A stretch of 64,000 nucleotides of DNA from Escherichia phage fDHCT2: sequence record OR427838.1, one strand, 5' to 3'. A program made the position numbers and the translations under genes. The notes beneath the pieces are model-generated. The model had not been told where the DNA came from and ran no database searches. It saw only the letters and a list, made by a program, of their open reading frames with translations. Shown in pieces: positions 5,979 to 60,569 of the stretch. How positions within the stretch are numbered: the stretch's first letter is position 1; each line of letters starts with the position of its first letter.

Positions 5979-7144
5979 GTTCAAAAACTATGCAGCGTGA
6001 AGGCTTTCCTAATATTAGTATACGCCTTTACGAAGATTATGACGCCTGGTTAGAGCATCGTTTTGTTGAACTAGGCGCGACATTTACTACTCTAACAATG
6101 CGAGACGGGCTTTACGGTAGTAATGAAGGATTGCTCCAGTTTTATGATGCAAAAAACCTTCATACTAAAATGGATGGTGAGCAGATTATCCAAGTTTCTG
6201 TTAAGAATGCCAACTCGGAACGTACCCAATCAAGAATTTACGGAAGTAAACACTTTGCAGTAGGGGTGGATTCTAAGGGCGACAATATCATAACAATACA
6301 ACTCGCCCCTATCCACTTTTTAGAAAATCTTAAATTCGGACGTATGTTCTTCCCTAGTGTTCAAGAAACATTAACAGAAATGATTGGTGTTATTTACCAA
6401 GACCGTCCGTTACTTGCTCCTCCTTTGAACGGAATAAACGTTTACGTTCCTAATGTTCCTTGGTGTGATTCAATGGACCGTTATATGGAATTTGTACGAG
6501 AAGTAGGTATGGCTGTTGAATCTGATAAATTTGTATTTGTCTGGGAAGATATAGATGGTATTTCTATTATGGACTACGAATTTATGGTTAATCAAGAGCC
6601 AATTAATTTTGTGGTAGGTGAGCCTCGTTTAATAGGCCAATATGTTCAAGATATGGATACTCCTATCGCATTTGATTTTGAATGGTTAACTAAAGCCAAC
6701 CAGCATTCCAGAAAGCCATATGAAAACGCTACTATATACGCCCACTCTTTCTTAGACAAAAACGCCACACGAATTACTTTTGGCGATGGGCAAAACAGTA
6801 TATTGGTTTCTCGCTCTGGTGGATATTCTGATTATACCTACCGAAACGGATTTGAAGAAGCCGATAGATTAGTTACTATGGCCCAATACGACGGCTACGC
6901 GCATTGTAAGGTATACGGTAACTTTGAACTAACTCCAGGCGATAAGATTAATTTCTATGACCCTAAAAACCAATTCCAATACGATTTTTATGTAGACGAA
7001 GTTATTCATGAAGTGAGTAACAATACATCAATTACAAACCTTTATATGTTTACTAATGGTAAGCCTATTAAGATTGAAGAACCACCGAAGGTTAAAAATG
7101 AACTTAAAACTGATACTCCCGATCAAGAAAATAACGCTGGGTGA
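5975..7144 (+). CDS. 27: Baseplate hub subunit gp27
   Basis: 389 aa (T4 gp27 391 aa); ATGA overlap with gene 51 stop. Confidence 0.9.
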
Positions 7145-11724: not shown

Positions 11725-11754
11725 ATAGTACCACATCCTTGTGGTGTTGTAAAC
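11725..11754 (-). promoter_or_regulatory. T4-type early promoter (minus strand)
   Basis: Minus strand: GTTTAC-18 bp-TACTAT; spacer contains inverted repeat ccaca/tgtgg. Confidence 0.5.
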
Positions 11755-18049: not shown

Positions 18050-18067
18050 AAAGGCCCGAAGGCCTTT
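18050..18067 (-). terminator. UUCG-tetraloop terminator upstream of alt
   Basis: aaaggcccgaaggccttt; minus-strand RNA hairpin followed by UUUUCUGG; then SD AAAGAGGAA for alt. Confidence 0.6.
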
Positions 18068-22430: not shown

Positions 22431-22472
22431 TTTTATTCTCCAGTTTGTTTTCGTATTATTTGGTACAGGTCT

Positions 22473-22502
22473 ATAATAACACAACCTGTACCAAAGTAAA
22501 AC
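22473..22502 (-). promoter_or_regulatory. T4-type early promoter (minus)
   Basis: GTTTTAC-17 bp-TATTAT; -10 lies in the loop of inverted repeat ggtacaggt/acctgtacc; followed by conserved leader ..GGAGAATAAAATG. Confidence 0.5.
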
Positions 22503-22504
22503 AT

Positions 22505-22837: not shown

Positions 22838-22878
22838 TTTATTCTCCAGTTTGTTTTCGTATTATTTGGTACATGTCT

Positions 22879-22907
22879 ATAGTATCATGCCTACCGGAGA
22901 TGTACAC
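22879..22907 (-). promoter_or_regulatory. T4-type early promoter (minus)
   Basis: GTGTAC-17 bp-TACTAT upstream of the 22837 start; same 35-nt leader as the promoter at 22473-22502. Confidence 0.45.
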
Positions 22908-22934
22908 CTTTTTTTAAGATTTAGAAACAAAAAT

Positions 22935-22952
22935 GGGACTCCGAAGAGTCCC
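22935..22952 (-). terminator. UUCG-tetraloop intrinsic terminator
   Basis: gggactccgaagagtccc; on minus RNA followed by AUUUUUGUUUC; right after stop of the small ORF 22958-23119. Confidence 0.65.
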
Positions 22953-22957
22953 ATAAC

Positions 22958-26359: not shown

Positions 26360-26389
26360 TTCGATTTCCTCATTTGTTTCGGTAGGACT

Positions 26390-26419
26390 ACTATACCACA
26401 GTCCTACCATGATGTAAAC
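26390..26419 (-). promoter_or_regulatory. T4-type early promoter (minus) with -10 in inverted-repeat loop
   Basis: GTTTAC-18 bp-TATAGT; 9-bp inverted repeat ggtaggact/agtcctacc flanks the -10. Confidence 0.5.
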
Positions 26420-28338: not shown

Positions 28339-28372
28339 AATAATTTCCTCAATTTTTATAATCCGTAGGAGC

Positions 28373-28402
28373 ATTATACTCTGCTCCCAAGAGTTTGTAA
28401 AC
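28373..28402 (-). promoter_or_regulatory. T4-type early promoter (minus) with -10 in inverted-repeat loop
   Basis: GTTTAC-18 bp-TATAAT; arms ggagca/tgctcc flank the -10. Confidence 0.5.
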
Positions 28403-29631: not shown

Positions 29632-29661
29632 TTTGTTTTCTCCTCATTAGTTGGTAAGTCT

Positions 29662-29690
29662 ATACTAACACATCATGAGGAGATGTAAAC
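29662..29690 (-). promoter_or_regulatory. T4-type early promoter (minus) for alc
   Basis: GTTTAC-17 bp-TAGTAT, overlapping the rnlA stop region. Confidence 0.5.
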
Positions 29691-31256: not shown

Positions 31257-31270
31257 GGGGCCGAAGCCCC
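31257..31270 (-). promoter_or_regulatory. Intercistronic UUCG-tetraloop hairpin between nrdB and denA
   Basis: ggggccgaagcccc (minus RNA GGGGCUUCGGCCCC), 5 nt after the nrdB stop and 8 nt before the denA ATG. Confidence 0.5.
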
Positions 31271-32450: not shown

Positions 32451-33254
32451 TCACATATTATGTATAAGCACTTCAGTCTGGAATGACACACCTTTTGATA
32501 CTTTTTGATATCTAGTTTCAAAATATTCAATTTTGAAATTGTTAGAAAGGGCCCAATCTTTTAGAATGTTATTATCAATATCATCTGATAGATTATTAGT
32601 GATAATAAATTTAGACTTTGATCGTTTAATTTTATCTAATAATTCTAATTCATCCTTTTCTTCCCACCCCGAATATTTAAATTTAGTAGAAAGATATGGT
32701 GGATCGATAAATAAGTTCCTGTTTTCAAAATCTAAATCTCTGAATGATTTATTTGAAAAACTTAGCAGATGTTGTCGATTTTTAAAAGCGGCGAATTTAT
32801 CCTGTTGCGATTTATTAAAAGAAGTTCTAGAGTATTTAGCCCTATCCGCAAAAGAAGCTATATACTTATCATCTTTAGAAAATTTTAGCATTGAGCTGAA
32901 TGCAAATAAATGTAGAACATACAAATACAACCCGTTTTTGGTTTTATCGTATTCCTTTGCCAGAGAGTAAAACGGTTTAGGGTCCACATCATTTAAACCG
33001 AAATCATCAATAATTTGGACAACGTCATTCATTGTTGAAGTTTTCATCGCGTTGTACATATTGATGACATGATAATTAATATCATTACACTCAACTCGCC
33101 GCCCACAATTCATAGAAAATCCAAGCCCACCACAAAAGGCATCTAAAACTATGGAGTCATCAAACCCCGTCACGAATTTATTAATAAAATCCATATATTT
33201 GTATTTTGAACCCGGGTAGGTTATCGCTGAATAATATTTCATCATATTTGCCAT
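32451..33254 (-). CDS. dam: Dam-like DNA N6-adenine methyltransferase
   Basis: 267 aa; motif I LDAFCGGLG, motif IV DPPY, Dam-family blocks YPGSKY and FNKSQ; recalled similarity to T4/E. coli Dam; AT-rich gene. Confidence 0.85.
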   Translation of the reverse strand: MANMMKYYSAITYPGSKYKYMDFINKFVTGFDDSIVLDAFCGGLGFSMNCGRRVECNDINYHVINMYNAMKTSTMNDVVQIIDDFGLNDVDPKPFYSLAKEYDKTKNGLYLYVLHLFAFSSMLKFSKDDKYIASFADRAKYSRTSFNKSQQDKFAAFKNRQHLLSFSNKSFRDLDFENRNLFIDPPYLSTKFKYSGWEEKDELELLDKIKRSKSKFIITNNLSDDIDNNILKDWALSNNFKIEYFETRYQKVSKGVSFQTEVLIHNM

Positions 33255-33297
33255 TTTGTTAGTGACTCATCCATGAGTCAATTATAATCAGATTTTA

Positions 33298-35553: not shown

Positions 35554-35584
35554 AATTTCCTCAATATGTTAGGTTCTACATCTA

Positions 35585-35608
35585 TAATAACATAGAACCT
35601 GTTAAGCA
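35585..35608 (-). promoter_or_regulatory. Putative MotA-dependent middle promoter for nrdA
   Basis: Minus strand ..cATGCTTAAca-13 nt-TATTAT: MotA-box-like TGCTTA near -30 plus -10; -10 is flanked by inverted repeat ggttcta/tagaacc. Confidence 0.4.
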
Positions 35609-35974
35609 TGGACTGATATTTATAGGTCTTCTAATGAGAACGTATCTTTGAAAAGTTTGTTAACAACCAGGGCTATCACATCCCCATGACAGTCCTTAGG
35701 TTTACAGGTACACGCTATTCGCATACCTCTAAGGGTTTCAAGGTGTTCTCTTTTAATTTCACCTGATTTTATTTTAGCAATAAAGTATTCTTTAAAGTTC
35801 TTGATGTTTTCCTCACGAGTCCCATCTTTAAATGGATTACCCCACATAGTTCCACGTTGGATGTTTACATCAAAATCTTCTTTATACTTGTTAACAACTC
35901 TACAGACTCTCATTATAGCACCAAATTCAGTCCGACCATAATAACCAAAAACAGAGTACAGATTATTTGAATTT

Positions 35975-37908: not shown

Positions 37909-37933
37909 TTTATTCTCCTTAGTTGACAAGGCT

Positions 37934-37963
37934 ATAGTATCACTACCATAGCCTGATGTAAAC
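37934..37963 (-). promoter_or_regulatory. T4-type early promoter (minus)
   Basis: GTTTAC-18 bp-TACTAT; inverted repeat aggctat/atagcct around the -10. Confidence 0.5.
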
Positions 37964-38191: not shown

Positions 38192-38223
38192 TTTATTTTC
38201 CTCACTCATTAGTTGATAGATCT

Positions 38224-38252
38224 ATAGTATCACGTTTAAAGGCGTTATAAAC
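38224..38252 (-). promoter_or_regulatory. T4-type early promoter (minus)
   Basis: GTTTAT-17 bp-TACTAT followed by leader ..CAACTAATGAGTGAGGAAAATAAAATG. Confidence 0.5.
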
Positions 38253-38878: not shown

Positions 38879-38907
38879 TTTTATTTCCTCATGTAGTTGA
38901 TAAGTCT

Positions 38908-38936
38908 ATAGTATCATGTTTAAAGGCATTGTAAAC
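38908..38936 (-). promoter_or_regulatory. T4-type early promoter (minus)
   Basis: GTTTAC-17 bp-TACTAT. Confidence 0.5.
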
Positions 38937-38988
38937 CATTAAATGCCAAAAAGGGAAGACCGAAGTCTTCCCATTATAAATCAATAAC

Positions 38989-42144: not shown

Positions 42145-42175
42145 ATGAACCTCTGTCCAAGTAGTTGAGAGGTTC

Positions 42176-42204
42176 ATTATATCATGACCCTAGAAGAAGT
42201 AAAC
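42176..42204 (-). promoter_or_regulatory. T4-type early promoter (minus) for rnh
   Basis: GTTTAC-17 bp-TATAAT; -10 overlaps the first in-frame ATG of the long ORF, so transcripts start downstream of it. Confidence 0.5.
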
Positions 42205-42251: not shown

Positions 42252-45200
42252 ATGGCCGATATTTTAAAACCTGCATTCCGTGCTACATCCGGACTCGATG
42301 CTGCGGGCGAGAAAGTTATCAATGTTGCCAAAGCCGATTACAATGTATTAGATGATGGCGTCAACGTTGAATTCTTTATAGATGAGAACACCATCCAGGC
42401 GTACGACGAGACGCGCGGATATAAGAAAGGGTTTGCAGTAATCCATGACCAACGTATCTGGGTTGCTCAACGTGATATCGCTGCACCAGCCGGAACTTTT
42501 GTGCCTGGTTATTGGACCGCTACCCGTACTGACCCTAAATGGATTACCGTAGCGTCTCCTACACGCCAGCTGGCTTCCGGTGAATATATTGCGGTGGATT
42601 CTGCTGCTAGCTTTACTACATTTACCCTGCCTCCGAACCCTACTGACGGTGATACAATCGTAATCAAGGATATTGGTGGTCGTGTAGGTTATAATGAAAT
42701 TAAGCTCCAGTCTAGTTCTGCTCCAGGCGGCGGTAATCAGAAAATTGTTCGTTTTGGTAATCAGTTCACTGAGACCTTAATTACGAAGCCTTTTTCTTAT
42801 AATATGATTATCTTTGCCAACCGTTTATGGCATTTCTGGGAAGCAGCTAATGAAGAACGTGGTATTCGTGTAGAACCGAACACCGCTCAGTTCCAATCAC
42901 AAGCGGGTGATAACGTTTTGCGCCGTTATACTTCAGGTGCAGTAATTAAGTTTACTCTTCCTAAGTATGCGAACCAAGGCGATATGATTAAAACCGTTGA
43001 TATTGATGGTTTAGGAAGTAAGTTCCATTTAATCGTTGAAACGTTTGATGCTTCATCTTCATTAGGTAAGCTCGGCCAACATAGCATGGAATTCCGTACT
43101 TCCGGTGATGGATTCTTTGTTTATAACTCTACTGAAAAATTATGGTATGTTTGGGACGGTGATCGTCAAACTCGTTTACGCGTAATTCGTGACGATGTTG
43201 AACTCTTGGCTAACGAAAGCGTTATTGTTTTTGGCCCTAATAATACAACACCGCAGACGATTAATATCACTTTACCTACAGGCGTAGCCCAGGGTGATGT
43301 AGTTAAGATTGCTCTGAACTATCTCCGTAAAGCTCAGACGGTAAATATTAAGGCCGCTGTAGGAGATAAAATAGCTTCTTCGGTTCAATTGCTCCAGTTC
43401 CCTAAACGTTCTGAATATCCGCCAGATACTGAATGGGTATTGAATGATGTATTGACCTTCAATGGTAACTTAAGTTATACTCCGGTTATTGAACTGAGTT
43501 ATATTGAAGACTCCACTACAGGTGGCAAATATTGGGTTGTTGCTCAGAACGTTCCTACTGTAGAACGTGTAGATTCTAAAGATGATTTAACCCGTGCTCG
43601 TCTTGGTGTTATTGCTCTGGCGTCTCAGACCCAAGCAAACGTCGACCATGAAAATAATCCTGAAAAAGAACTGGCTATCACCCCACAGACTTTAGCCAAT
43701 CGTGTAGCTACCGAATCACGTCGTGGTATTGCTCGTATTGCTACTACTGCTCAGGTAAACCAGAACACAACTTTCGCGTTCCAGGACGATTTGATTATTT
43801 CTCCTAAGAAATTAAACGAACGTACTGCAACCGAAACTCGTCGTGGTGTTGCTGAAATTGCTACGCAAGTTGAAACTGATGCCGGTGTTGATGATACAAC
43901 CATTATCACTCCTAAGAAGCTACAGACGCGCCAGGGAACTGAAAGCCTGTCTGGTATAGTAAAATATGTATCTACCACAGGAACCACTCCTGCGGACTCC
44001 AGAGCAACTGTAGGTACTAACGTTTATAATAAGAATACAACTACTTTAGTTATTTCTCCTAAAGCTTTAGACCAGTATAAAGCCGACCAAAATAACCAAG
44101 GTGCTGTATATCTTGCTACGCAAGCCGAAGTTAATGCGGGTGCTACTAACCCAGGTTTTAGTAACTCGGTTGTCACACCTGAAACATTAGGTGCTCGTCG
44201 TTCTACTGATACTAATCATGGTTTAATTGAAATTGCTACGCAAGCAGAGACTGATACTGGAACTGATTATACTCGTGCGGTAACGCCTAAGACGTTAAAT
44301 GACAGGAATGCTACTCAAACACTTACTGGTATTGCTCGTATTGGTACTCAAGTAGAATTTGATGCAGGTGTATTAGATAATGTTATTTCAACTCCGTTGA
44401 AAGTTAAAACAAGATTTAATGATACTGCTAGAACTTCTGTCTCAGCAGCCAGTGGTTTGATTGAATCAGGAACCTTATGGAACCATTATACACTAGATAT
44501 CCGTGAAGCAAGTAATACTCAACGTGGTACAGCTCGTTTGGCGACCCAAACTGAAGTTAATACTGGTACCGATGATAAAACAATCATCACTCCGCTTAAG
44601 CTTCAAGCTAAAAAGGCTACCGAAAACGCTGAAGGTATTATCCAACTCGCTACTCAGGCCGAAGTTATTGCGGGTACGATAAGTAATAAAGCGTTTAGTC
44701 CCAAGCATTACAAATATGTCGTCCAACAGGAAAAATCCTGGGAAGCTACTTCTGCTCGTAGAGGATATGTTAAATTAACCACAGGTACCGCCACTTGGGA
44801 AGGCGATGATACTAATGGCTCTGTTGCTAACCTGGCTAAATTTGAAGACGATGGTTTTGCTATTTCACCACTTCAGATGAACACCGCATTAACTCACTAT
44901 CTTCCTATTAAAGGTAAGGCTTTTGACTCCGATAAATTGGACAACCTGGATAGCTCTCAGTTCGTCAGGAGAGATATCGACCAAATAGTTGAAGGAACAT
45001 TAACCCTTCGTAAAAACATCAGAGTGGATGGCCAGTTGGCTACAGGCGGTACCGGTGAATTTGGTGGTTCTTTAGCAGCTAATAGTACATTTACCCTCCG
45101 TAATACAGGAACGGCTACTCGTATAATATTTGAAAAAGGTCCTCAAACAGGAACTAACCCTGTTCAATCTATGAGTATTCGCGTATGGGGTAACCAGTAC

Positions 45201-46151
45201 GGCGGTGGTTCTGATACATCCCGTTCTACGGTATTTGAAGTCGGCGATGAAACATCTAATCACTTTTATTCTCAACGCAATAAAGATGGTAATATAGCAT
45301 TTAGCATTAATGGTACTGTAATGCCAATAAATGTTAATGCTTCAGGCTTGATGAATGTGAACGGCGTTGCAACATTTGGTCGTTCAGTGACTGCACAGGG
45401 CGAATTTATAACCTATAGTGCAAACGCATTTAGAGCTATTAGTGGACAGTACGGGTTCTTTATTCGTAATGATAACTCGAACATCTATTTCATGCTTACA
45501 AATGCAAATGACCAGACTGGTGGCTTTAACGGATTAAGACCATTAGCTATTAGTAATACATCTGGCCAAGTAACGATTGGTGAAAGCTTAATCATTGCCA
45601 AAGGTGCTACTATAAATTTGGGTGGTTTAACAGTTAACTCGAGAATTCGTTCGCAAGGTACTAAACCCGCTGACCTTTATTCGAGAAAACCAAATGCTGA
45701 TAACACCGGGTTTTGGTCTGTTGACGTTAATGATTCAGCCACATATAATCAGTTCCCTGGTTATTTTGAAATGGTCGAAAAAGTTAACGAAGTAACAGGA
45801 TTGCCTTACTTAGAACGTGGTGCAGAGATTAAATCCCCTGGCACATTGACCCAGTTTGGTAATACCCTGAATTCGTTATACCAAGATTGGATTACTTATC
45901 CTGCTAATGCCAACGCACGTACTACTCGTTGGACCCGTACATGGCAGCAAAGTAAAAATGCATGGTCGGGTTTTGTTCAGGTGTTTGATGGCGGTAACCC
46001 TCCTCAACCTTCTGATATCGGCGCCCTTCCGGCGGATAACGCTTCGATGAGTAACTTGACCATTCGTGATTGGTTACGTATTGGTAACGTTCGTATAGTT
46101 CCTGACCCGGTAACTCGTTCTGTTAAATTCGAATGGATTGATACACCATAA
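42252..46151 (+). CDS. 34: Long tail fibre proximal subunit gp34
   Basis: 1299 aa; repetitive shaft motifs (..RRG.A.IAT..) and position/size as T4 gp34. Confidence 0.95.
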   Translation: MADILKPAFRATSGLDAAGEKVINVAKADYNVLDDGVNVEFFIDENTIQAYDETRGYKKGFAVIHDQRIWVAQRDIAAPAGTFVPGYWTATRTDPKWITVASPTRQLASGEYIAVDSAASFTTFTLPPNPTDGDTIVIKDIGGRVGYNEIKLQSSSAPGGGNQKIVRFGNQFTETLITKPFSYNMIIFANRLWHFWEAANEERGIRVEPNTAQFQSQAGDNVLRRYTSGAVIKFTLPKYANQGDMIKTVDIDGLGSKFHLIVETFDASSSLGKLGQHSMEFRTSGDGFFVYNSTEKLWYVWDGDRQTRLRVIRDDVELLANESVIVFGPNNTTPQTINITLPTGVAQGDVVKIALNYLRKAQTVNIKAAVGDKIASSVQLLQFPKRSEYPPDTEWVLNDVLTFNGNLSYTPVIELSYIEDSTTGGKYWVVAQNVPTVERVDSKDDLTRARLGVIALASQTQANVDHENNPEKELAITPQTLANRVATESRRGIARIATTAQVNQNTTFAFQDDLIISPKKLNERTATETRRGVAEIATQVETDAGVDDTTIITPKKLQTRQGTESLSGIVKYVSTTGTTPADSRATVGTNVYNKNTTTLVISPKALDQYKADQNNQGAVYLATQAEVNAGATNPGFSNSVVTPETLGARRSTDTNHGLIEIATQAETDTGTDYTRAVTPKTLNDRNATQTLTGIARIGTQVEFDAGVLDNVISTPLKVKTRFNDTARTSVSAASGLIESGTLWNHYTLDIREASNTQRGTARLATQTEVNTGTDDKTIITPLKLQAKKATENAEGIIQLATQAEVIAGTISNKAFSPKHYKYVVQQEKSWEATSARRGYVKLTTGTATWEGDDTNGSVANLAKFEDDGFAISPLQMNTALTHYLPIKGKAFDSDKLDNLDSSQFVRRDIDQIVEGTLTLRKNIRVDGQLATGGTGEFGGSLAANSTFTLRNTGTATRIIFEKGPQTGTNPVQSMSIRVWGNQYGGGSDTSRSTVFEVGDETSNHFYSQRNKDGNIAFSINGTVMPINVNASGLMNVNGVATFGRSVTAQGEFITYSANAFRAISGQYGFFIRNDNSNIYFMLTNANDQTGGFNGLRPLAISNTSGQVTIGESLIIAKGATINLGGLTVNSRIRSQGTKPADLYSRKPNADNTGFWSVDVNDSATYNQFPGYFEMVEKVNEVTGLPYLERGAEIKSPGTLTQFGNTLNSLYQDWITYPANANARTTRWTRTWQQSKNAWSGFVQVFDGGNPPQPSDIGALPADNASMSNLTIRDWLRIGNVRIVPDPVTRSVKFEWIDTP

Positions 46152-46159
46152 GAGGTAAT

Positions 46160-47284
46160 ATGGAAAGATTTATGGCTGAATTTGGACAAGATTACGTTCA
46201 AATTCCTGTACTATCTGAAAATAATGCCGTTAGTTATAAACTTAGTATAGCAGGGAGCTGTACTAAGTCTACTAAAAAGGCTTATATCAAATTTCAAGAT
46301 GAGGACTTCGGTCCTCAGAATTTCCAATCTGGCCTAAATTTGGTTGAAATAGACCCAACAAATAACACAATAGTAACTACAAAATCATACGCATTTACCA
46401 AAGACCATGATGTTATTTCCCAAGCGTTTATAACTTATATTTCATCTATACCCGCTGGTAGAATTGTTTGCTTTATTTCTTCTGGTAAATTAAACGCCTC
46501 ACAGATATTAATTGATTGGTTTAGAGCTTCCGGTTCTACAGCATTTCCGGATAAATGGCTTATTGATAAAGTGGATACTTCTTATTCAGCTTTTTACGTT
46601 TCAGGAAGAAATGCTATTGTAATGGAACATGTGCTTTATAACGACGGCGCTTTGGTAGAAGACGTTTCTACTCCATTAGAAGTCGTTTATGACAATTTTA
46701 ATGATGTAGGAGGAACTGGGTTCCCTGTTAGAGTCATTGAAGATGAAAACACTTACTATAGTGGAGCTACTCAAGAAATTAAAAGGTTTCCTACCAATTC
46801 CGCTATAACTCCTTGTGCCGGTTATAATATGGCCCCTGGAGATTTCTTTTATCTTAAATTCCAAATGACCTATGACCAGGCTTTAAAAGATTTAGGGACG
46901 ACCCAGATGTCCATACGATTTTTTAATGGCCAAGAAATGCTTCAATCCACTGATATCAATATTCCTGTAGGAGCAGGCTCTCCACCGGCAGGCGCATGGA
47001 TGACTTTTGAGCGCGTAATAGAAGTTCCGCCAAATGCCAATGGTTTTACATTATATTGTAGAAAAACTGTCTCAGGCGGAGTAGGAGGTGTTAGGAATGT
47101 TATGTTTGGTGAAATAGCTAGACCTGAAGATACCCCTAAATCCGCTGAAATCGGTGTTAATGGTATTCGTATGAGCTATGGTACCGAAACCCGTTCAATG
47201 GGTAATGTTATTGCACAATTGAATGACAAATCATCTGGTAACGCAGGTAAAGTATTTGTTCAAGAATTTAAAGAAAAATATTAA
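46160..47284 (+). CDS. 35: Long tail fibre hinge protein gp35
   Basis: 374 aa, syntenic between 34 and 36. Confidence 0.85.
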   Translation: MERFMAEFGQDYVQIPVLSENNAVSYKLSIAGSCTKSTKKAYIKFQDEDFGPQNFQSGLNLVEIDPTNNTIVTTKSYAFTKDHDVISQAFITYISSIPAGRIVCFISSGKLNASQILIDWFRASGSTAFPDKWLIDKVDTSYSAFYVSGRNAIVMEHVLYNDGALVEDVSTPLEVVYDNFNDVGGTGFPVRVIEDENTYYSGATQEIKRFPTNSAITPCAGYNMAPGDFFYLKFQMTYDQALKDLGTTQMSIRFFNGQEMLQSTDINIPVGAGSPPAGAWMTFERVIEVPPNANGFTLYCRKTVSGGVGGVRNVMFGEIARPEDTPKSAEIGVNGIRMSYGTETRSMGNVIAQLNDKSSGNAGKVFVQEFKEKY

Positions 47285-47305
47285 GGGACCGTAAGGTCCC
47301 TTTTT
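47285..47305 (+). terminator. Intrinsic terminator after gene 35
   Basis: gggaccgtaaggtccc (GNRA loop) followed by TTTTT. Confidence 0.7.
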
Positions 47306-47307
47306 GC

Positions 47308-47315
47308 TATAAATA
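47308..47315 (+). promoter_or_regulatory. Late promoter TATAAATA for genes 36-37-38
   Basis: TATAAATA about 25 nt upstream of gene 36 ATG, SD AAAGAGGAA. Confidence 0.7.
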
Positions 47316-47340
47316 CGTTATCTAATAAAGAGGAATAACT

Positions 47341-47988
47341 ATGGCTGATTTAAAATTAGGCTCAACCGCCGGAGGTTCCGTTATATGGCACCAAGGCAAC
47401 TTTCCGCTGACGCCGGTATCAAATGATATTTTATATAAAACCTACAAAATCTATACCGAATTTAATAAGCCCCAAGCTACAGATAACGACTTTGTTTCTA
47501 AGGCAGCCGGAGGTACATATAAAGGTACTGTTAATTTTGAAAAAGGTATAACTTTTAACGACTCTGCCGGGTATGCTATTAAATTGGGTGCCAGAGAAGG
47601 CGGGCAACCTTTTACCGCTTCATTTAAGATTAAAGGGTCTTTTGGCCTTGAAACTGAAACGGGGACCCCATTTGTAATCTTCAACCCGAGCACTACAGTA
47701 GGAGCTAACCGTCTTACAGTAATGGGTGATATCCTTGGTCGTCAAATTAAAGACGAATCAGGTCGAGTGTTTTCTCCAGGGAATGCTCCGACAAAAGCCC
47801 AGGTAGGATTAAGTGATGTGGATAACGCAAAACAGGTCCAAATAAATAATAGTAACATACAATCTATGGCTGGCGTTCTTTCAGCCCCGAATTTCATATC
47901 TAGGAGCCCAGGTACATTGAACGAACACGTTCCTCGTATTGACCAGGTTGTTCTTAGAGGTACATCTGAAGATTTTGGATATTATTAA
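47341..47988 (+). CDS. 36: Long tail fibre distal connector gp36
   Basis: 215 aa (T4 gp36 221 aa), syntenic. Confidence 0.85.
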
Positions 47989-47996
47989 GAGGCATT

Positions 47997-50900
47997 ATGG
48001 CTACTTTAAAATCGATACAATTTAAAAGAAGTAAAACACCAGGAGCCAAGCCTACTGCAGCTCAGTTAGATGAAGGCGAACTGGCTATTAACTTGCGTGA
48101 CCGCACTATTTTTACCAAGTCAGACCAAGGACAGATTATTGATTTAGGTTTTGCTAAAGGTGGTACTGTCGACGGCGATGTGACTATTAATGGAACTTTA
48201 CGCATTAACGGTCCATTAAACAATTTTGGAAACTTTTCTACAAGCGGGTCGATTACAGCGGGCACTAGTATTTCGGGCCAAACTTTTAGAGCGTTGCAAG
48301 GCTCGTTTTATGCAAGGGCACCAAACGACGCATCGAATGCCCATTTATGGCTTGAAAATGCCGATGGTGTTGAACGGGGTGTTATATATGCTCGGCCTCA
48401 AACTACAACCGCTGGTGAAATACGTCTTAGAGTTAGACAAGGAACCGGAAGCACTATTAATAGTGAATTCTATTTCCGTTCTATAAACGGCGGTGAATTT
48501 CAAGCCAACCGTATTTTAGCATCAGATTCGTTAGTAACTAAACGCATTGCAGCTGATACAGTTATCCACGGTGGCAAAGCCTTTGGTGTATATGATACGG
48601 ATTCATTAGTTAATTATGTATATCCAGGCACCGGCGAAACAAATGGTGTAAACTATCTTCGTAAAGTTCGTGCTAAATCCGGCGGCACTATGTGGCATGA
48701 ACTTTGCACTGCCCAACTAGGCCAAGCCGATGAAATGTCTTGGTGGACAGGTAATACCCCACAGTCAAAACAGTATGGTATTCGTAACGATGGCCGAATG
48801 GCTGGCCGTAATAGCCTTGCATTAGGTACATTCACTACAGATTTCCCGTCTAGCGATTATGGTAACGTCGGTGTAATGGGTGATAAGTATCTTGTTCTCG
48901 GTGACACTGTAACTGGTCTGAAATATATTAAACAATATGTTTATGATTTAGTTGGTGGGGGTTATTCAGTTGCTTCTATTACTCCTGATAGTTTCCGTAG
49001 TACTCGTAAAGGTTTATTTGGACGTTCAGAAGACCAAGGCGCTACATGGATTATGCCAGGCACGAATGCTGCATTTTTATCAGCCCAAACTCAGGCTGAC
49101 GGGAATACAGCTGGTGATGGTCAGACACATATTGGTTATAACTCTGGTGGAAAAATGTCACACTATTTCCGCGGTAGAGGTCAAACCAATATTAACACCC
49201 AAGAAGGTATGGAACTTAACCCAGGTATTCTTAAACTAGTAACCGGTGCAAATAATGTAATGTTTTATGCTGATGGTGGTATTACATCCACTAAGCAGCT
49301 TTCAATTTATAATGGTGTTTATCTTGCAGCTAATAACTCAACCGCAGGTTTGACTTTTTCGGCAACTACCACTATTGATGGCACCAAACAAATTCTTTGG
49401 GAAGGTGGTACTCGAGCAGGCCAGAATAAGAGTTATGTAACTGTTAAAGCATGGGGTAATTCATTTAACGCCACTGGCGATAAATATCGTGAAACTGTAT
49501 TTGAAGTTAGTGACGGACAAGGATACCATTTTTATTCTCAACGTGGTGCGCCTACAGGTGACGAAACTATCGGCCCTGTATTAATGCAAGTTTCAGGTTC
49601 TTTAAATGCAAGAGGAACATTAAACGCCGGTGCCAATCTTTATGTGGGAGGATTGAGTACACATGAAGGTGCTGTGACCATGAATAATGGGCTTAATTTA
49701 ACTGGTGGGGCTTCAATTAACGGACAAGTTAAAATGGGTGGTACCGCTGATGCATTAAGAATTTGGAATGCCGAATATGGTATGATTTTCCGACGTTCGG
49801 AATCCGGTTCTTCTTCTTCATTCCATCTTATTCCTACCCTCCAGAATGCTGGCGAAAACGGTGGAATAAGTGACCTTCGCCCGCTTTCCATTAATTTGGC
49901 TAATGGCACGGTTCTAATGGGTAATAAAAGTGCTGGGTATGGTCCACTTTTCACAGTCGACAACGTAAGTAAATTTGTTCGGACCGACTGTAGACTGCGC
50001 GTTAATATGGATTCCGATGCCATTGTAATAAATGCTTCATCCCAGGCGTCATCTAACTTTATCCAGGGACGTAAAGCAGATGTTACAAAATGGTATCTCG
50101 GTATTGGCGACGGCGGCAACGTTGTTCGTTTACATAACTATACCTACTCCCACGGTATTGCATTAAACTCTGACACTGTTGATATAACCAAGGCACTTAA
50201 AATTGGTTCCGATGTTCGTATTGGTCCTGACGGTAATATTACAGGCAGCACTGCATTAGAAAACTTTAAAAACCTGAACACAACGTTAGACCGTAAAGTT
50301 AACACAGGCGGGTGGTCGGGTGGTGCTACTACAGGTTGGTATAAATTTGCTACTGTAGAAATGCCACAATCGACAGGTACAGCATCCTTTAAAATATCAG
50401 GTGGGTCTGGGTTTAATTTTAAAAGTTATGGTCAGGCTTCAATAGCCGAAATAGTCCTTAGAACCGGCAATAATAACCCTAAAGGCCTTAATGCTACGCT
50501 GTGGAATAGAACTTATGAAGCCATTTCCCAGATTGCTTCGGTTAATACAAGCGAAGATATCTATGATATTTACGTTTACATTGGTGGGTATTCTAATTCT
50601 TTGGTGGTAGAATATACCTGCAGCAGCAATAGTAAAGTAACCGTAGTGGGTATTAATAGCGGTGTCCAGCCTTTGGTAGAAACATTACCTGAAGGTCATG
50701 TTGTAGGTAAATCTGTAAGAATGCTGAACAACCTTGACGGAATGTTTGCTGCCGGCGAATCAGATATTGTTACACGTGGTGAATACGTCGCTAATAACAA
50801 AAAAGGTATGCGTATTAAATCTAGTGGTAATGATATAGATTCTAATGCCGCTTTAATTAGAAACGATGGCGGAAGTTTTTATATTTTATTTACGGATAAA

Positions 50901-51899
50901 AATACCGCAGAAAACCCAAATGCAACCGATGGTGATTGGAATGGCTTAAGACCTTTCTCTATCAACATAGCTGATGGCCGCGTTGGTATGAACCATGGGT
51001 TAAATATTACTGGCGGTGGTCTGAACGTGGCAGGTGGCCTTAATGTTACCAGTGGTAATACTAGTTTAGGTAATATCTCATCTCGTGTGGTTGCAGGTTG
51101 GCGCGGTGCCTCTGGTTGGGGTGATAACTCAGACGCAATGAAATCTAAAATCACCTTTATGGCAGACCACGGTGATTTATCTAATTCAGGTAGTTATTAT
51201 CCTATTGTCGGTGCATACAGTAACTATGGTTCGGCGGGTTATCGTCAAACCTTTGAATTTGGTTGGGTCGGTTCCGGTACCACCGCTGGATGGCGTGACG
51301 GTATTATTCGTATACGTGGCGACAATGCCAACGGCCAACAGGCAAGATGGCGCTTTACAATGGACGGTCTTTTAGATTGCCCTGGTAAAGTACAGATGCC
51401 ACAAACAAGTGCCTTTGGCGTCAACACAACTAACTCACTCGGTGGAAGTAGTATAACATTTGGCGATAGTGATACCGGTATTAAGCAAAACGGTGATGGT
51501 TTACTTGATGTTTATGCGAACAGTGTACAAGTATTCCGTTTCCAAAACGGCGATTTGTACTCGTATAAAAATATAAATGCTCCTAACGTTTATATTCGCT
51601 CTGATATTCGTTTGAAATCTAACTTCAAACCAATTGAAAACGCTCTCGAAAAGGTTGAACAGCTTGATGGTTTAATCTATGATAAAGCTGATTATATTGG
51701 TGGTGAGGTTGTTCACACTGAAGCAGGTGTTATTGCACAGAGCCTGGAAAAAGTATTACCTGAAGCTATTCGTGAAGTTGAAGATATCAAAGGTAATAAA
51801 GTTCTGACCGTTTCGACTCAGGCCCAAGTGGCGCTGTTACTTGAAGCGGTTAAAACCCTGTCGGCTAAAGTAAAAGAACTTGAAGCTAAATTAAATTAA
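47997..51899 (+). CDS. 37: Long tail fibre distal subunit gp37 with C-terminal intramolecular-chaperone-like domain
   Basis: N-terminus [33 protein letters not shown] as recalled T4 gp37; 1300 aa; C-terminal about 100 aa (..[39 protein letters not shown]..coiled coil) resembles endosialidase-type chaperone domains. Confidence 0.9.
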
Positions 51900-51909
51900 A
51901 TTAAGAAAA

Positions 51910-51923
51910 GGGCCTTCGGGCCC
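51910..51923 (+). promoter_or_regulatory. UUCG-tetraloop hairpin between genes 37 and 38 (no U-tract)
   Basis: gggccttcgggccc, 11 nt after gp37 stop; followed by SD AAGGA of gene 38 rather than a T-run. Confidence 0.5.
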
Positions 51924-51935
51924 TAAGGATTTATT

Positions 51936-52724
51936 ATGGCAATCGTAGGATTACCCGGTTGGGTCGGCCAATCTGCAGTTGACGAAACAGGTCAACGTTG
52001 GATGGATGCAGCAATGCGTGATGTTCGTGTAGCTGTTCCAGGTTGGATGGGTTCGATGGCTAACCAATCAAAAGAAATTTACTTATCTATAGGGGCTAAT
52101 CATAACTATGATAGGAATACCCTTATAAACTGGATGAGAGCCCAAGGCAGTGCGCCTGTAGTTATCACAATTACCGGCAACATAGTATCAAATAGCCGCG
52201 GAAACCCGTGTCTGGAATTCCCTAGCAACTTACCTAATGCATATATTCAACTTACTATTAATAGCGGTGTAACTGTTTATGGGCGAGGAGGTAACGGTTC
52301 TACTAATGGTTCTGCAGGCCAAGCAGGCGGTACAGCAATCCATAACGCTGCCGGAACCAAATTGCGTATTCGAAACAATGGTGCTATCGCTGGCGGTGGT
52401 GGTGGCGGTGGTGCTGTATCGTTACAGAACAGCTATCCAACTAACGGTACCTGTGGTGGTGGCGGTGGTAGACCATTCGGCGTCGGTGGGAAAATAGGGT
52501 CTGATGCCATATTGTCCGGTGCAAACGCATCTCTAACTGCCGCCGGTTCAGGTGGTACCACGGTCCAATACGGTGCAGGTAACGGCGGTAATGTTGGTGC
52601 TGGCGGTGGACGAGGATGGGGCAAAAACGTTTATACCTCTGCAGGTGGTTCTGCTGGAGCTGCCGTTACAGGCAATGCTCCTTCTTGGCAGAACGTAGGA
52701 ACCATCTACGGAAGCCGTGTTTAA
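51936..52724 (+). CDS. 38: Tail fibre tip adhesin gp38 (T2/S16-type, glycine-rich motifs)
   Basis: 262 aa; conserved N-terminus MAIVGLPGW.G.SAV.ETGQRWM; poly-Gly runs (GGGGGGGA, GGGGGRPFG) characteristic of T2-type gp38 adhesins. Confidence 0.85.
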   Translation: MAIVGLPGWVGQSAVDETGQRWMDAAMRDVRVAVPGWMGSMANQSKEIYLSIGANHNYDRNTLINWMRAQGSAPVVITITGNIVSNSRGNPCLEFPSNLPNAYIQLTINSGVTVYGRGGNGSTNGSAGQAGGTAIHNAAGTKLRIRNNGAIAGGGGGGGAVSLQNSYPTNGTCGGGGGRPFGVGGKIGSDAILSGANASLTAAGSGGTTVQYGAGNGGNVGAGGGRGWGKNVYTSAGGSAGAAVTGNAPSWQNVGTIYGSRV

Positions 52725-52735
52725 TACTTCTGTAT

Positions 52736-52743
52736 TATAAATA
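52736..52743 (+). promoter_or_regulatory. Late promoter TATAAATA for holin t
   Basis: TATAAATA about 18 nt upstream of t ATG, SD AAAGGAGAAAAG. Confidence 0.7.
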
Positions 52744-52761
52744 TCTTTAAAGGAGAAAAGT

Positions 52762-53415
52762 ATGGAACCAAAAGTAGGATTTTCATTATCAGACCTACTT
52801 TTTGGACTTCTTGATAGAATTTTTAAAGATACTTCTTCCGGGAAAGTAGTTTTTTCCCGGGTCCTAGTCGTAATATTATTGTTCTTTATGGCACTGGTTT
52901 GGTATAAAGGCGAGTATATTCTAAACTTTTACAAAGAGACAACTTATGCCTCTTATACTGAAATGATTAGACAAGACCAGGACAATAGATTTAAAATTGC
53001 GGCTATCGAGCAGCTCCGAATAGTGCATTCTTCTTCAGGCGCGGACTTCACAGCAATATATTCTTTTAGACCGACCAACATGAATTATTTTGTGGATATG
53101 GTTGCTTACGAGGGTAAATTACCGGAAACGGTAGACGCAAAAAATACGGGAGGGTTTCCGATTGACAAAACGTCAGTAGAGTATATGGCGGGAGTTAACG
53201 GGAATTACTTTGAATCAAGTACCGAAACTGTATTCCTTCCTACAAAGAAGAAAACACAATTCACGTATATGTTTTCATGCCCGTTTTTTAATTTGGATAA
53301 CGTCTACGCCGGCTCGATATCGTTGTACTGGTATGATATCAAACCGGATTTAGGATTTCCTAGACTTTCGTCTATGTGTGGTCAAGCCGGGAGGACATTA
53401 GGTCGAACACGTTAG
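52762..53415 (+). CDS. t: Holin T
   Basis: 217 aa; single N-terminal TM (VVILLFFMALVWY) and large periplasmic domain; strong similarity to recalled T4 gpt (FRPTNMNYFVDMVAYEGKLP, SCPFFNLDNVYAG). Confidence 0.9.
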   Translation: MEPKVGFSLSDLLFGLLDRIFKDTSSGKVVFSRVLVVILLFFMALVWYKGEYILNFYKETTYASYTEMIRQDQDNRFKIAAIEQLRIVHSSSGADFTAIYSFRPTNMNYFVDMVAYEGKLPETVDAKNTGGFPIDKTSVEYMAGVNGNYFESSTETVFLPTKKKTQFTYMFSCPFFNLDNVYAGSISLYWYDIKPDLGFPRLSSMCGQAGRTLGRTR

Positions 53416-55740: not shown

Positions 55741-55774
55741 TTTAATCTCCGATAACCATTTATTTGATAGGTCT

Positions 55775-55803
55775 ATAGTATCATGTTTAAAGCAGAAGTA
55801 AAC
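55775..55803 (-). promoter_or_regulatory. T4-type early promoter (minus) for motA
   Basis: GTTTAC-17 bp-TACTAT, leader ..CAAATAAATGGTTATCGGAGATTAAAATG. Confidence 0.5.
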
Positions 55804-55827
55804 ACTTTTTTGCACTAAACCCAAAAA

Positions 55828-55845
55828 AGGAACCCGAAGGTTCCT
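55828..55845 (-). terminator. UUCG-tetraloop intrinsic terminator downstream of gene 52 operon
   Basis: aggaacccgaaggttcct; minus RNA hairpin followed by UUUUUUGG. Confidence 0.65.
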
Positions 55846-55949
55846 TACTTTTTAAAGTGGGCTGCTATTAAACCTATAGCTAAGCCTGTTGCCAGGCCTA
55901 GGATAACAGCAAAGATACAGAGTAACAAGAACTCGACTCCAAGGCTCAT
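55845..55949 (-). CDS. Small hydrophobic membrane peptide (34 aa)
   Basis: MSLGVEFLLLCIFAVILGLATGLAIGLIAAHFKK; ATGA overlap with gene 52 stop; terminator overlaps its stop. Confidence 0.35.
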   Translation of the reverse strand: MSLGVEFLLLCIFAVILGLATGLAIGLIAAHFKK

Positions 55950-58161: not shown

Positions 58162-58238
58162 ATCAATTTCCTCAGTAGATTAATGTTTTGTTATCCAGTC
58201 AACGAGAACCATTATAACACGATTCTCGAGGTTGTAAA

Positions 58239-58927: not shown

Positions 58928-58953
58928 AATCATCTCCATTAGTTGATAGGTCT

Positions 58954-58982
58954 ATAATATCATGTCTAATGGAGATGTAAAC
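58954..58982 (-). promoter_or_regulatory. T4-type early promoter (minus)
   Basis: GTTTAC-17 bp-TATTAT; leader ..CAACTAATGGAGATGATTATG. Confidence 0.5.
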
Positions 58983-59072
58983 TGATTTATGCCAATTTCC
59001 ACAACAATAAACTAAAACATACACAAATCACCGGGATACAGGTCAACCAAATAAGGCACCACATTTTGCTGC

Positions 59073-59333
59073 TCAAAACACCACCTCTTTAATTTCCATA
59101 AACCCATCATTCAGTGCATGGCGGAGTTCATAATGGATATCTATACCATCGACATTATCTAATTTACCGTCGATAAGTTTTTGTAAATCTTTTTTTGACG
59201 CTATCAAAGGACGAAGAAATCTACAATTAGAAAGGGATAATTCCGTAATAACATCTTCACCTGAGGCATCGTACATTGCGGCAACAACTTTACCTGTAAC
59301 TTTGTGTTTAGCGTAATATAATTTGATATTCAC
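59073..59333 (-). CDS. Hypothetical protein (86 aa), paralog of 59330-59593
   Basis: MNIKLYYAKHKVTGKVVAA.. aligns with adjacent MKFKFYYIKHKVTGEFIAF..; ATGA overlap. Confidence 0.55.
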   Translation of the reverse strand: MNIKLYYAKHKVTGKVVAAMYDASGEDVITELSLSNCRFLRPLIASKKDLQKLIDGKLDNVDGIDIHYELRHALNDGFMEIKEVVF

Positions 59334-59593
59334 AATTCCACCTCAATGATTTCAAGTTGATTTTCTTTGATAGCTTTCTTGATACAATTATTCACAATAT
59401 TATCCCAAGAATCGTTTAGCTCGCCCTTCGCCATACGTTGAAGATGCTCTTTTGTGGACAAATAAGGCTGGTCTGAATCCCATCTAGATAAGAACAATGA
59501 AGTAAAAGTATCACCTTGGTTATTGGATGAAGTTGTAAATGCAATAAACTCCCCAGTAACTTTATGCTTAATATAATAAAATTTAAATTTCAT
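59330..59593 (-). CDS. Hypothetical protein (87 aa), paralog of 59073-59333
   Basis: SD GGAGAAACAAA, early promoter upstream; tandem duplicate. Confidence 0.55.
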   Translation of the reverse strand: MKFKFYYIKHKVTGEFIAFTTSSNNQGDTFTSLFLSRWDSDQPYLSTKEHLQRMAKGELNDSWDNIVNNCIKKAIKENQLEIIEVEL

Positions 59594-59628
59594 TTTGTTT
59601 CTCCAGTTTGGTAACTCAGTATGGAATC

Positions 59629-59658
59629 ATTATACATAGACTCCATACTGATGTACAC
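59629..59658 (-). promoter_or_regulatory. T4-type early promoter (minus) with -10 inside a 10-bp inverted repeat
   Basis: GTGTAC-18 bp-TATAAT; arms tcagtatgga (59616-59625) and tccatactga (59642-59651) flank the -10. Confidence 0.5.
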
Positions 59659-59668
59659 TACTTTTTAA

Positions 59669-59928
59669 TTAATTGTGCATTTGTTCTTTAACTTCTTTAT
59701 ATGCACCAACTGCATTCACGACCCCAGTAAAATCTGCTGTTCCGCGATAGAGATAGAAAGCAATTTCAGTCAGGTGATAGACTTCAAATTCTGAAAGATA
59801 AACGATAACGTCATAATATGCAACTTGACCCTGGACTTCGTTGAATGCTACATCAAAAATTTCATGGGTCGGAAAATTGATGCTTGAATAAGAATTTGTT
59901 TGATGTTTTGAGTAGTAACTTGTTCCAT
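59669..59928 (-). pseudogene. Frameshift-interrupted ORF (26 codons from ATG 59928, then about 65 further open codons in the -1 frame)
   Basis: ATG 59928 with SD GAGGA opens MEQVTTQNIKQILIQASIFRPMKFLM-stop; the -1 frame continues open (..HEIFDVAFNEVQGQVAYYDVIVYLSEFEVYHLTEIAFYLYRGTADFTGVVNAVGAYKEVKEQMHN) to a stop near 59669 without its own start codon. Confidence 0.3.
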
Positions 59929-59975
59929 GATAATGTCCTCATTTGTTGGTGTAAGGACATTATTACATGGTTGGT

Positions 59976-60569
59976 TCAGCTTGTAAACCGGTGATAGGGA
60001 AATTTTTCTTCTGAACAAGAACGGAGGTACCAACCATCCCCTTGTGACTTCTGCACAAAACCAGACTCAGGAACGAAAGCCCCAGGTCCAGCAAGGAATT
60101 TTGGTTTAAATCTATAGCCTTTGAGAGTCTCTTTTACATCGAACATAATCATAAGGTCAGCAAGCTTGTGTTGCATAAAAGGACCAAGATTGACCCCGTA
60201 ACCATGCGGATAATCACCCTGGTGACCAGTATGCACGGATATCCATTTGGAACCAGACTGATGAGTCTTGACTTCAATTCTTACGCCTTCCTTCGAAACT
60301 ACATCAAATGCAAAGGAATAAGGATTATCGTAATCTTCATCGCCACCACATAAAAAACCGGAGGTCCATTTAGCAATAGCTTGTTCAGCCATTGTAGCCA
60401 CCATACATCTTTGCATGACTTGCTCACGGTCCTGACCAGGGTCTTTACGCAATGAATACCTGGCAGTGTCTACAATCTTTTGCAGGGATTCGGGTGTTAA
60501 GTCTTCCTTTGTATAAAGAAAGGAGGGCATCTTTTTCAGATGCTCCCATGTTTTACTCTTCTGAATCAT
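59976..60569 (-). CDS. Hypothetical protein (197 aa); positional candidate for endonuclease IV (denB)
   Basis: ORF with SD GAGGTAAAAG; lies between ndd-side genes and rIIB where T4 carries denB; no motif-level confirmation. Confidence 0.5.
   Translation of the reverse strand: MIQKSKTWEHLKKMPSFLYTKEDLTPESLQKIVDTARYSLRKDPGQDREQVMQRCMVATMAEQAIAKWTSGFLCGGDEDYDNPYSFAFDVVSKEGVRIEVKTHQSGSKWISVHTGHQGDYPHGYGVNLGPFMQHKLADLMIMFDVKETLKGYRFKPKFLAGPGAFVPESGFVQKSQGDGWYLRSCSEEKFPYHRFTS

Follow-up and report, generated by a model that had tools for sequence, protein, structure and literature searches.

The 64-kb window, by which we mean the whole stretch of 64,000 nucleotides analysed here (Escherichia phage fDHCT2, OR427838.1), is identified by sequence comparison as part of a T4-like coliphage of the Tevenvirinae with a mosaic Dhakavirus/Gaprivervirus genome: the portion at 20-44 kb is 93-94% identical to Dhakavirus genomes (JS10, JS98, dhaeg), and the nearest relatives of the denB region are Gaprivervirus genomes (CJ20, MN01, VR7). 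The genes among which the sites described below are found are:

20-44 kb, minus strand: 30.x, rIII, 31, cd, pseT, alc, rnlA, denA, nrdB, nrdA, td, frd, 32, 59, 33, dsbA and rnh
53-64 kb: asiA, motA, 52, ndd, denB, rIIB and rIIA

At the early sites these genes are tightly packed, each gene's stop codon lying 0-10 nt from the -35 that follows, so that the promoter takes up roughly the whole intergenic space. The inverted repeat that was flagged first (59616-59651, here site r) is within the ndd-denB hyperplastic region. The small ORFs that flank it have no match in Pfam, and a search of IMG/VR found no relatives of the protein encoded 3' of it; orthologous and paralogous cassettes were instead compared in GenBank phage records, namely those of JS10, CJ20, VR7, SP18, P479, DK-13, VR20, UPEC01, MN01, RZ and phage 212. 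The preliminary description of a perfect 10-bp repeat bracketing the TATAAT of a GTGTAC/TATAAT promoter is exact in its coordinates, the promoter being on the minus strand, where the site reads GTGTAC a TCAGTATGGA gtctatgTATAATgat TCCATACTGA, followed by GGAG and an ATG at 59593 (in context, aaaaagta-GTGTAC-a-TCAGTATGGA-gtctatg-TATAAT-gat-TCCATACTGA-gttaccaaact-GGAG-aaacaaa-ATG). The features of site r are:

59653-59658, minus strand: -35 element GTGTAC of an early promoter 5' of the ORF at 59330-59593, from the sequence and a promoter scan
59639-59651, minus strand: 5' arm of hairpin r, TCAGTATGGAGTC, in the promoter spacer; the 13-bp stem is found in MFE and centroid folds
59629-59634, minus strand: -10 element TATAAT, at the 3' end of the 10-nt loop, read in the sequence
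59616-59628, minus strand: 3' arm of hairpin r, GATTCCATACTGA, over the discriminator and the predicted transcription start
59591-59604, minus strand: SD GGAG (59601-59604) and ATG (59591-59593) of the 87-aa ORF, outside hairpin r

The -35 agrees with the T4/PST-type consensus TTTACW-N17-TAYWAT (PMC4122927). As RNA, the repeat extends to a 13-bp stem that includes one G.U pair (59639-59651 / 59616-59628) and closes a 10-nt loop with TATAAT at its end; the SD is 11 nt past the stem, and hairpin r does not mask it. Across 11 phages the arms hardly vary: no change is found in the 5' arm, and the 3' arm of SP18 and P479 (GGCTTCATACTGA) carries three transitions, all of which remain paired in the sense RNA as G.U or G-C; the loop of these two phages differs at 3-5 positions, while the changes in the 3' arm preserve pairing.

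The preliminary description listed five recurrences of this arrangement, and all five are present on the minus strand, with small offsets in the coordinates of two of them (22468 and 37931) and with one (35571) that does not belong to an early promoter:

22459-22495, minus strand: hairpin c, TTTGGTACAGGT / ACCTGTACCAAA, 12-bp arms, 30.7 promoter (z -3.5)
26381-26408, minus strand: hairpin f, GGTAGGACT / AGTCCTACC, 9 bp, loop gtggTATAGT
28368-28387, minus strand: hairpin g, GGAGCA / TGCTCC, 6 bp, around TATAAT
35571-35600, minus strand: nrdA hairpin, AGGTTCTA / TAGAACCT, 8 bp, around TATTAT
37929-37954, minus strand: hairpin i, AGGCTAT / ATAGCCT, 7 bp (11 bp as RNA with G.U), around or overlapping TACTAT

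Hairpins f and g lie exactly where they had been placed, hairpin i lies 2 nt away, and hairpin c, whose true stem is 12 bp, about 6 nt away. Hairpin c, with TATTAT (22473-22478) in its loop, is kept in VR7 and CJ20; variants of hairpin i in JS10, VR7 and CJ20 stay paired, one extra base pair being compensated. Upstream of nrdA, a MotA box (aTGCTTAa, 35602-35609) is followed after 12-13 nt by TATTAT, and there is no -35; judged by the T4 consensus, this promoter is probably of the middle type rather than early.

All intergenic gaps were read, perfect inverted repeats were listed, and T4-type promoter patterns were scanned for; at least five more sites with a hairpin at the -10 were found beyond the six already named (58203-58228, 58931-58977, 29639-29683, 42145-42177 and 59930-59963), together with promoters of contrasting type:

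58203-58228, minus strand: hairpin p, ndd promoter, CGAGAATC / GGTTCTCG (one U.G), around TATAAT
58931-58977, minus strand: hairpin q, CATCTCCATTAG / CTAATGGAGATG, 12-bp arms, loop with TATTAT (z -3.8)
29639-29683, minus strand: hairpin h, alc promoter, TCTCCTCAT / ATGAGGAGA, 9 bp, 27-nt loop with TAGTAT
42145-42177, minus strand: hairpin m, rnh promoter, ATGAACCTCT / AGAGGTTCAT, 10 bp
59930-59963, minus strand: hairpin s, downstream of denB, ATAATGTCCT / AGGACATTAT, 10 bp (z -3.8)
11730-11745, minus strand: small hairpin ACCACA agga TGTGGT, wholly within the spacer of another early promoter
22933-22954, minus strand: canonical UUCG-tetraloop terminator with a T run, before promoter d (22884)
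38953-38972 and 55827-55846: the same terminator-then-promoter arrangement, before promoters k and o

Four of these cassettes have the SD of the downstream gene inside the 3' arm: in hairpin h the 3' arm is the SD sequence of alc; in hairpin q it includes the SD GGAG of a small ORF (58959); in hairpin m it includes the SD of rnh and adjoins the ATG at 42144, TATAAT (42176-42181) abutting and overlapping the 5' arm; and in hairpin s, which is kept in 11 phages, it contains the SD GAGGA and adjoins the ATG of the ORF at 59930, with the 5' arm overlapping a -10-like TAATAAT and GTTTAC at 59983-59988. The other seven hairpins (r, c, f, g, i, p and that of nrdA) end 8-30 nt before the SD and are not followed by a U tract. 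The hairpin at 11730-11745 is a different subclass of the PeSL cassettes discussed below; the spacer-internal type is also seen in CJ20, VR7, JS10 and phi1.

The promoters at 22884, 38913 and 55780 have no stem or a weak one at the -10 (only a weak 6-bp repeat at promoter d), and each lies directly after a UUCG-tetraloop/T-run terminator. The promoter at 38229 has neither terminator nor hairpin. A hairpin is present at 11 of the 12 promoters that lack an upstream UUCG/T-run terminator; at the three that follow one, the stem around the -10 never exceeds 6 bp (Fisher p = 0.009, 15 promoters). At least 15 cassettes are spread over the 30.x, cd, pseT, frd and ndd-denB regions, which are hyperplastic and rich in small ORFs, and none was found in the late tail-fibre block (42252-53415).

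An architecture of this kind has been named in the T4-like phages RB49 and phi1 as the promoter-early stem-loop (PeSL) cassette (Arbiol 2010; PMC2839356), which consists of a sigma-70 promoter, an A/T-rich upstream tract that as a rule includes the preceding gene's stop codon, a stem-loop that in most cases either lies between the two boxes or overlaps the -10, in which G-T pairs were marked, and, at its 3' end, the SD and ATG; the cassettes are enriched in hyperplastic regions and associated with indels. Also ascribed to PeSLs are a stem that terminates or attenuates transcription and recombination between cassettes that yields mini-circles. Later work added T4/PST, in which the stems precede the promoter, and KVP40/nt-1, with MotA-type 'PmSLs' among the cassettes (Comeau 2014; PMC4122927), to which the MotA-box site at 35571 is analogous. 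In the literature on JS98-type phages, 'PeSL-like sequences' are mentioned at the g43 locus only.

The window cassettes share with PeSLs a strong sigma-70-type early promoter that is A/T-rich upstream, a G.U-containing stem-loop between the boxes or over the -10, and then the SD and ATG of a small gene. Every early site has GTTTAC/GTGTAC-N17/18-TAyTAT/TATAAT boxes, the A/T-rich tract is present 5' of the -35 (caattaattaaaaagta-GTGTAC, ttcaaaaataa-GTTTAC, ctacaaaaata-GTTTAC), and the SD and start codon of the downstream gene are at the 3' end of the cassette. Like PeSLs, the cassettes lie between genes and gather in hyperplastic regions (30.x, cd.x, pseT.x, frd.x and ndd-denB), and the leader of cassettes c, d and f resembles the phi1 leader. 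The phi1 sequence, read directly, has the same geometry (for example, TTGACA...GGGTGTATatcataATACACCC), without T runs. The boxes of the window are of the T4/PST type (GTTTAC ... TAyTAT) rather than TTGACA, however, its stems are less G/C-rich, and its loops are of 8-27 nt, compared with 3-6 nt in phi1. Whereas the published T4/PST stems are of the terminator type and precede the promoter, this phage has both types.

The repeats are more than chance would provide. In keeping with the comparison to shuffled controls that the preliminary description had called for, inverted repeats centred on the -10 are enriched. Perfect inverted repeats of at least 10 bp (loop up to 26) number six in the window, whereas dinucleotide shuffles give 1.5 +/- 1.1; each of the six lies between genes, and five of them reach a -10. 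Among 19 promoters defined by their hexamers and by a downstream SD and ATG, blind to hairpins, the best Watson-Crick stem with the -10 in its loop averages 6.0 bp, compared with 4.34 +/- 0.23 bp in 1000 shuffles (maximum 5.16), and stems of at least 9 bp occur at five, where 0.04 are expected. When the anchor is slid from -60 to +60, there is a single peak at -4 to 0 from the -10, with background elsewhere. When the upstream half of one promoter is joined to the downstream half of another, the mean falls to 4.2 bp, so that the two halves of each promoter match each other specifically, and common motifs do not account for their complementarity. With a strict promoter pattern, the relatives yield 3-9 promoters per locus and hence weak per-genome statistics, in which JS10, the second of two CJ20 loci and VR7 follow the same trend and the first CJ20 locus and an 8.9-kb sample of T4 do not. 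The 6-bp stems (28368 and 22884) are individually unremarkable, approximately 2.3 of 19 promoters reaching 6 bp in shuffles; a chance origin of the whole set, or its origin as a side effect of promoter conservation, has a negligible probability, being refuted by the enrichment, the positional peak, the swap control and the covariation of the arms.

The last of these was assessed between phages and between loci. The preliminary description had argued for function on the grounds that the arm sequences differ and the geometry is kept, and had proposed that compensatory changes be sought in related phages; the arms are indeed unrelated across sites, yet their pairing co-varies between orthologous as well as paralogous cassettes. 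At the ndd promoter, Dhakavirus has CGAGAATC / GGTTCTCG and Gaprivervirus the unrelated GGGGTCA / TGACCCC around the same TATAAT. Hairpin q differs from its Gaprivervirus counterpart by a compensatory double change (T-A to G-C) and by changes from A-U to G.U. A cassette family of the form GTgTACAAACTCTTGGG-NN-CAGAGTATAATG-NN-CCC, to which hairpin g belongs, is present at several loci and in several phages, with its central pairs altered in concert. In an alignment of nine of its cassette variants, in which the orthologs are closely related and many cells are not independent events, 90% of the cells are paired, compared with 81% in shuffles, and the covariation score is 0.358, compared with 0.173 in shuffles and 0.05-0.12 with slid partners; none of 500 shuffles reaches either observed value. 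One pair of this alignment appears as GU, UA, AU, CG and GC, and another as AU and GC.

A palindrome over the -10 is the classic geometry of a repressor site, and the preliminary description had offered, as one of two explanations, a protein-binding operator overlapping the -10, presumably for a dimeric repressor. This explanation did not survive the comparison and is now highly improbable: no arm sequence is common to the 11 sites, in agreement with the swap control; the length of the arms (6-13 bp) and their spacing (8-27 nt) both vary; orthologous promoters exchange a whole stem for an unrelated one; and G.T pairs within the stems break the dyad symmetry.

The pairing is instead asymmetric between the strands. 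Mismatches inside the credible stems comprise six to seven G.U and no A.C. Folding energies favour the sense over the antisense RNA for all seven of the hairpins that exclude the SD (sign test p = 0.016) and for 15 of 16 variants, the difference being as large as approximately 10 kcal/mol; for example, the SP18 variant folds at -22.4 kcal/mol in the sense and -12.9 kcal/mol in the antisense orientation. When 116-nt read-through RNAs are folded, the MFE and the centroid structure both contain the hairpin at all 11 sites, with z-scores in this context that are weak for f, g, nrdA, p and m (-0.4 to -1.6). The tolerance of G.U and not of A.C, together with the asymmetry between sense and antisense, points to RNA of the sense strand and argues against both a DNA cruciform and a protein operator. 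These comparisons show that selection maintains the pairing and acts on a hairpin of the sense-strand RNA.

The cassettes coincide with the junctions of the mosaic. That of site r is followed by three different genes among the phages compared, homology breaking at the SD/ATG; JS10 lacks 30.7 and 30.8, and the junction follows immediately on the -10 of cassette d; and at the site orthologous to f, the type of cassette has been exchanged, a small spacer-internal hairpin being found in Gaprivervirus instead. The alignments indicate that conserved cassettes serve as junctions for the gain, loss and replacement of genes among related phages. This coincidence, and the mapping of an RB49 crossover to within the loop of one PeSL hairpin (PMC2839356), could be taken as signs of extrusion of a cruciform or hairpin at the DNA level, acting as a supercoiling-dependent promoter switch, a target of endonuclease VII or a hot spot of recombination. 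Such an element is improbable, because a cruciform requires pairing on both strands, whereas G.T is tolerated here and A.C is not, and the antisense strand folds worse; moreover, stems of 6-8 bp with loops of 8-16 nt are poor cruciform formers, and homologous recombination between conserved cassettes requires no hairpin.

We consider it likely, with a probability of roughly 0.7, that the inverted repeats are PeSL-type regulatory cassettes with a transcript-boundary (insulating) or SD-masking role. Their layout suggests how they may work. The 5' arm occupies the spacer between -35 and -10 and the 3' arm the discriminator/+1 region, so that the A/T-rich -10 ends up in the loop. Sigma-70 does little base-specific reading of either the spacer or the discriminator/+1 region, and in standard promoter geometry it starts transcription approximately 7 nt past the -10. 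With the start predicted to be inside the 3' arm, only RNA that was started upstream would have both arms and fold, and the hairpin would mark read-through transcripts. The preliminary description had proposed, as its other explanation, that such transcripts would fold a hairpin that the locally initiated transcript lacks; the anatomy of the sites, the covariation of the arms and the restriction of G.U to the sense strand support this, while the existence and fate of the read-through RNA are matters that we only infer. That hairpins are found at promoters without a terminator ties their role to read-through transcripts. A search of the literature for T4 TSS and Term-seq data that bear on such hairpins found nothing relevant.

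In the four cassettes that bury the SD, read-through RNA would be translationally masked, and only the RNA of the proximal promoter would be translated. SD masking is established for T4 e, soc, 49 and I-TevI (PMC3014915), and an SD-masking stem is also present at the T4 ndd.4 promoter. As in the four established T4 cases, hairpins h, q, s and m have the SD or AUG in the 3' arm and the promoter between or inside the arms, and long upstream transcripts would be masked while proximal transcripts would lack the 5' arm. T4, however, uses late promoters (TATAAATA) that delay expression, whereas the internal promoter of the window is of the early sigma-70 type, so that only immediate-early RNA would be translated. 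Site r and six others differ from the T4 cases in excluding the SD.

For these seven, we judge it most likely that the hairpin is a transcript-boundary element standing in for a terminator, which would attenuate read-through, supply a 3' hairpin to the upstream cistron, or both. The arrangement resembles the terminator-then-promoter order of T4/PST PeSLs and phage 'morons', in that an intercistronic hairpin comes before a self-contained unit of promoter and gene; it differs in that the window hairpins have large loops and no U tract and overlap the promoter instead of preceding it. The PeSL authors proposed a 'composite promoter-terminator', that is, a true Rho-independent terminator that stops polymerase where the next promoter begins; one RB49 PeSL stem cut lacZ expression as much as rrnB T1 did (PMC2839356), and the window hairpins sit where canonical terminators are absent. 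We regard this proposal as unlikely, and efficient intrinsic termination by the -10 hairpins as doubtful. An intrinsic terminator would have a G/C-rich stem, a loop of 3-8 nt and, right after it, a U tract. Their tails (GTTACC, TAATAC, GAAACA, TACGGA, AACATA, TGTCAA and TTGACT) are not those of intrinsic terminators, no U tract following any hairpin; their loops are of 8-27 nt; and a terminator scan called none of the 11, in contrast to the UUCG/GNRA-tetraloop T-run terminators of the same genome. The phi1 stems also lack T runs, so that the reported effect on lacZ need not be termination, and four of the hairpins fit better as SD masks. Thus, whereas the published function of PeSLs is that of a terminator, the window hairpins lack terminator features and a subset fits SD masking.

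A 5' hairpin that stabilizes a processed downstream RNA would account for these data as well, its effect being of opposite sign, and a G+C-rich discriminator and spacer could tune promoter kinetics at the DNA level as an additional effect. Stems of 6-13 bp are too short to be substrates of RNase III, and this candidate was rejected, as was a target of RegB, GGAG being present in some arms only.

If the cassettes act as transcript boundaries and SD masks, the outcome would be that every small early gene forms an expression module of its own, insulated and self-sufficient. A broader form of this reading, which we put forward tentatively and hold to be possible rather than probable, is that the hairpins, rather than being terminators, serve in general to report where an RNA began ('where did this RNA start?') and thereby insulate all small early genes: RNA that reads through would be subject to masking, attenuation or trimming back to a protective hairpin at its 3' end, and expression would be confined to RNA from the gene's own immediate-early promoter. 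If this is true, each unit of promoter, hairpin, SD and ORF would be independent of its context, a counterpart of synthetic insulators, which would explain the free shuffling of such units among T4-like phages.

The architecture itself has already been named and published, and the chief result of the present analysis is the extension of PeSL cassettes to the JS98/VR7 group (Dhakavirus/Gaprivervirus). To what was known it adds quantitative proof that stems centred on the -10 are non-random; covariation and a G.U-versus-A.C asymmetry which show that selection acts on sense-strand RNA; the finding that the stems, though devoid of terminator features, take the place of canonical terminators where a promoter lacks one; and a subset of hairpins that enclose an early promoter and would mask the ribosome-binding site. 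The cassettes bear on how T4-like phages keep early genes that are packed together and often exchanged transcriptionally and translationally independent of one another, and they could supply compact natural insulator parts.

Besides the early promoters of fDHCT2 that carry the -10 hexamer in the loop of an inverted repeat (the -10 hairpin), there is a second class, in which the hairpin has a stem of 5-6 bp and a loop of 4 nt and lies wholly within the -35/-10 spacer (ACCACAaggaTGTGGT, CACCAcggaTGGTG); in the Gaprivervirus ortholog of site 26395 (hairpin at 26381-26408), this spacer-internal class replaces the -10-loop class. The -10 hairpin is absent from promoters directly behind the canonical terminators, nearly all of which consist of a hairpin capped by a UUCG (or GNRA-like) tetraloop and, after it, a T run. 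Many early promoters have a conserved initial transcribed region 3' of the -10, TAyTAT-AGACCTATCAACTAATGAGGA, and its ATCAACTA core is found in T4 too, at the ndd.4 and ndd promoters (AF158101 sample, L015).

Promoter and terminator features (window coordinates unless stated)
11730-11745; CJ20 second locus (L013) ~14030-14062; JS10 L002 ~15404: spacer-internal hairpin promoters
22933-22954, 38953-38972, 55827-55846, 18050-18067, 31257-31270: canonical tetraloop terminators
58931-58959, 38880-38913, 55745-55780, 38195-38229: examples of the conserved initial transcribed region

Separately, two T4 late-promoter motifs (TATAAATA) stand back-to-back at 1559-1580 (TATAAATATaactATATTTATA), forming a 9-bp palindrome between divergent genes.

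At the T4 ndd.4 early promoter (L015 ~6770-6830), arms CTGTTCTTCC and GGAGGAACAG enclose a 25-nt loop containing TACTAT. This hairpin, upstream of ndd.4, is predicted to mask the Shine-Dalgarno sequence while holding the early promoter in its loop, so the architecture of the window's four SD-masking hairpins is present in T4 too.

Judged from sequence matches, the genome is a mosaic of a Dhakavirus-like block and a Gaprivervirus-like ndd-denB region. The replication/nucleotide-metabolism block (20000-44000) is 93-94% Dhakavirus (JS10, dhaeg), whereas the ndd-denB region (59000-60200) best matches Gaprivervirus (CJ20, 90%; MN01, 93%) and has one promoter with different downstream ORFs from phage to phage. 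Between nrdB and nrdA lies a 267-aa ORF (32451-33254, minus strand), a D12-class N6-adenine DNA methyltransferase (PF02086, E 1e-19), which is an insertion because nrdB directly adjoins nrdA in JS10; it sits in an A/T-rich stretch, with a TATAAT and a 7-bp hairpin (TGACTCAtggaTGAGTCA) upstream (33263-33280). The cassettes (early promoter with embedded stem-loop, then SD and ATG of a small gene) before 30.7 and 30.8 (22431-22504 and 22838-22957) have duplicated 3' halves, TGTACCAAATAATACGAAAACAAACTGGAGAATAAAATG. JS10 (L001 ~2806-2915) is without 30.7 and 30.8, and its junction falls immediately 3' of the upstream cassette's -10. This is what recombination between cassettes would be expected to leave.
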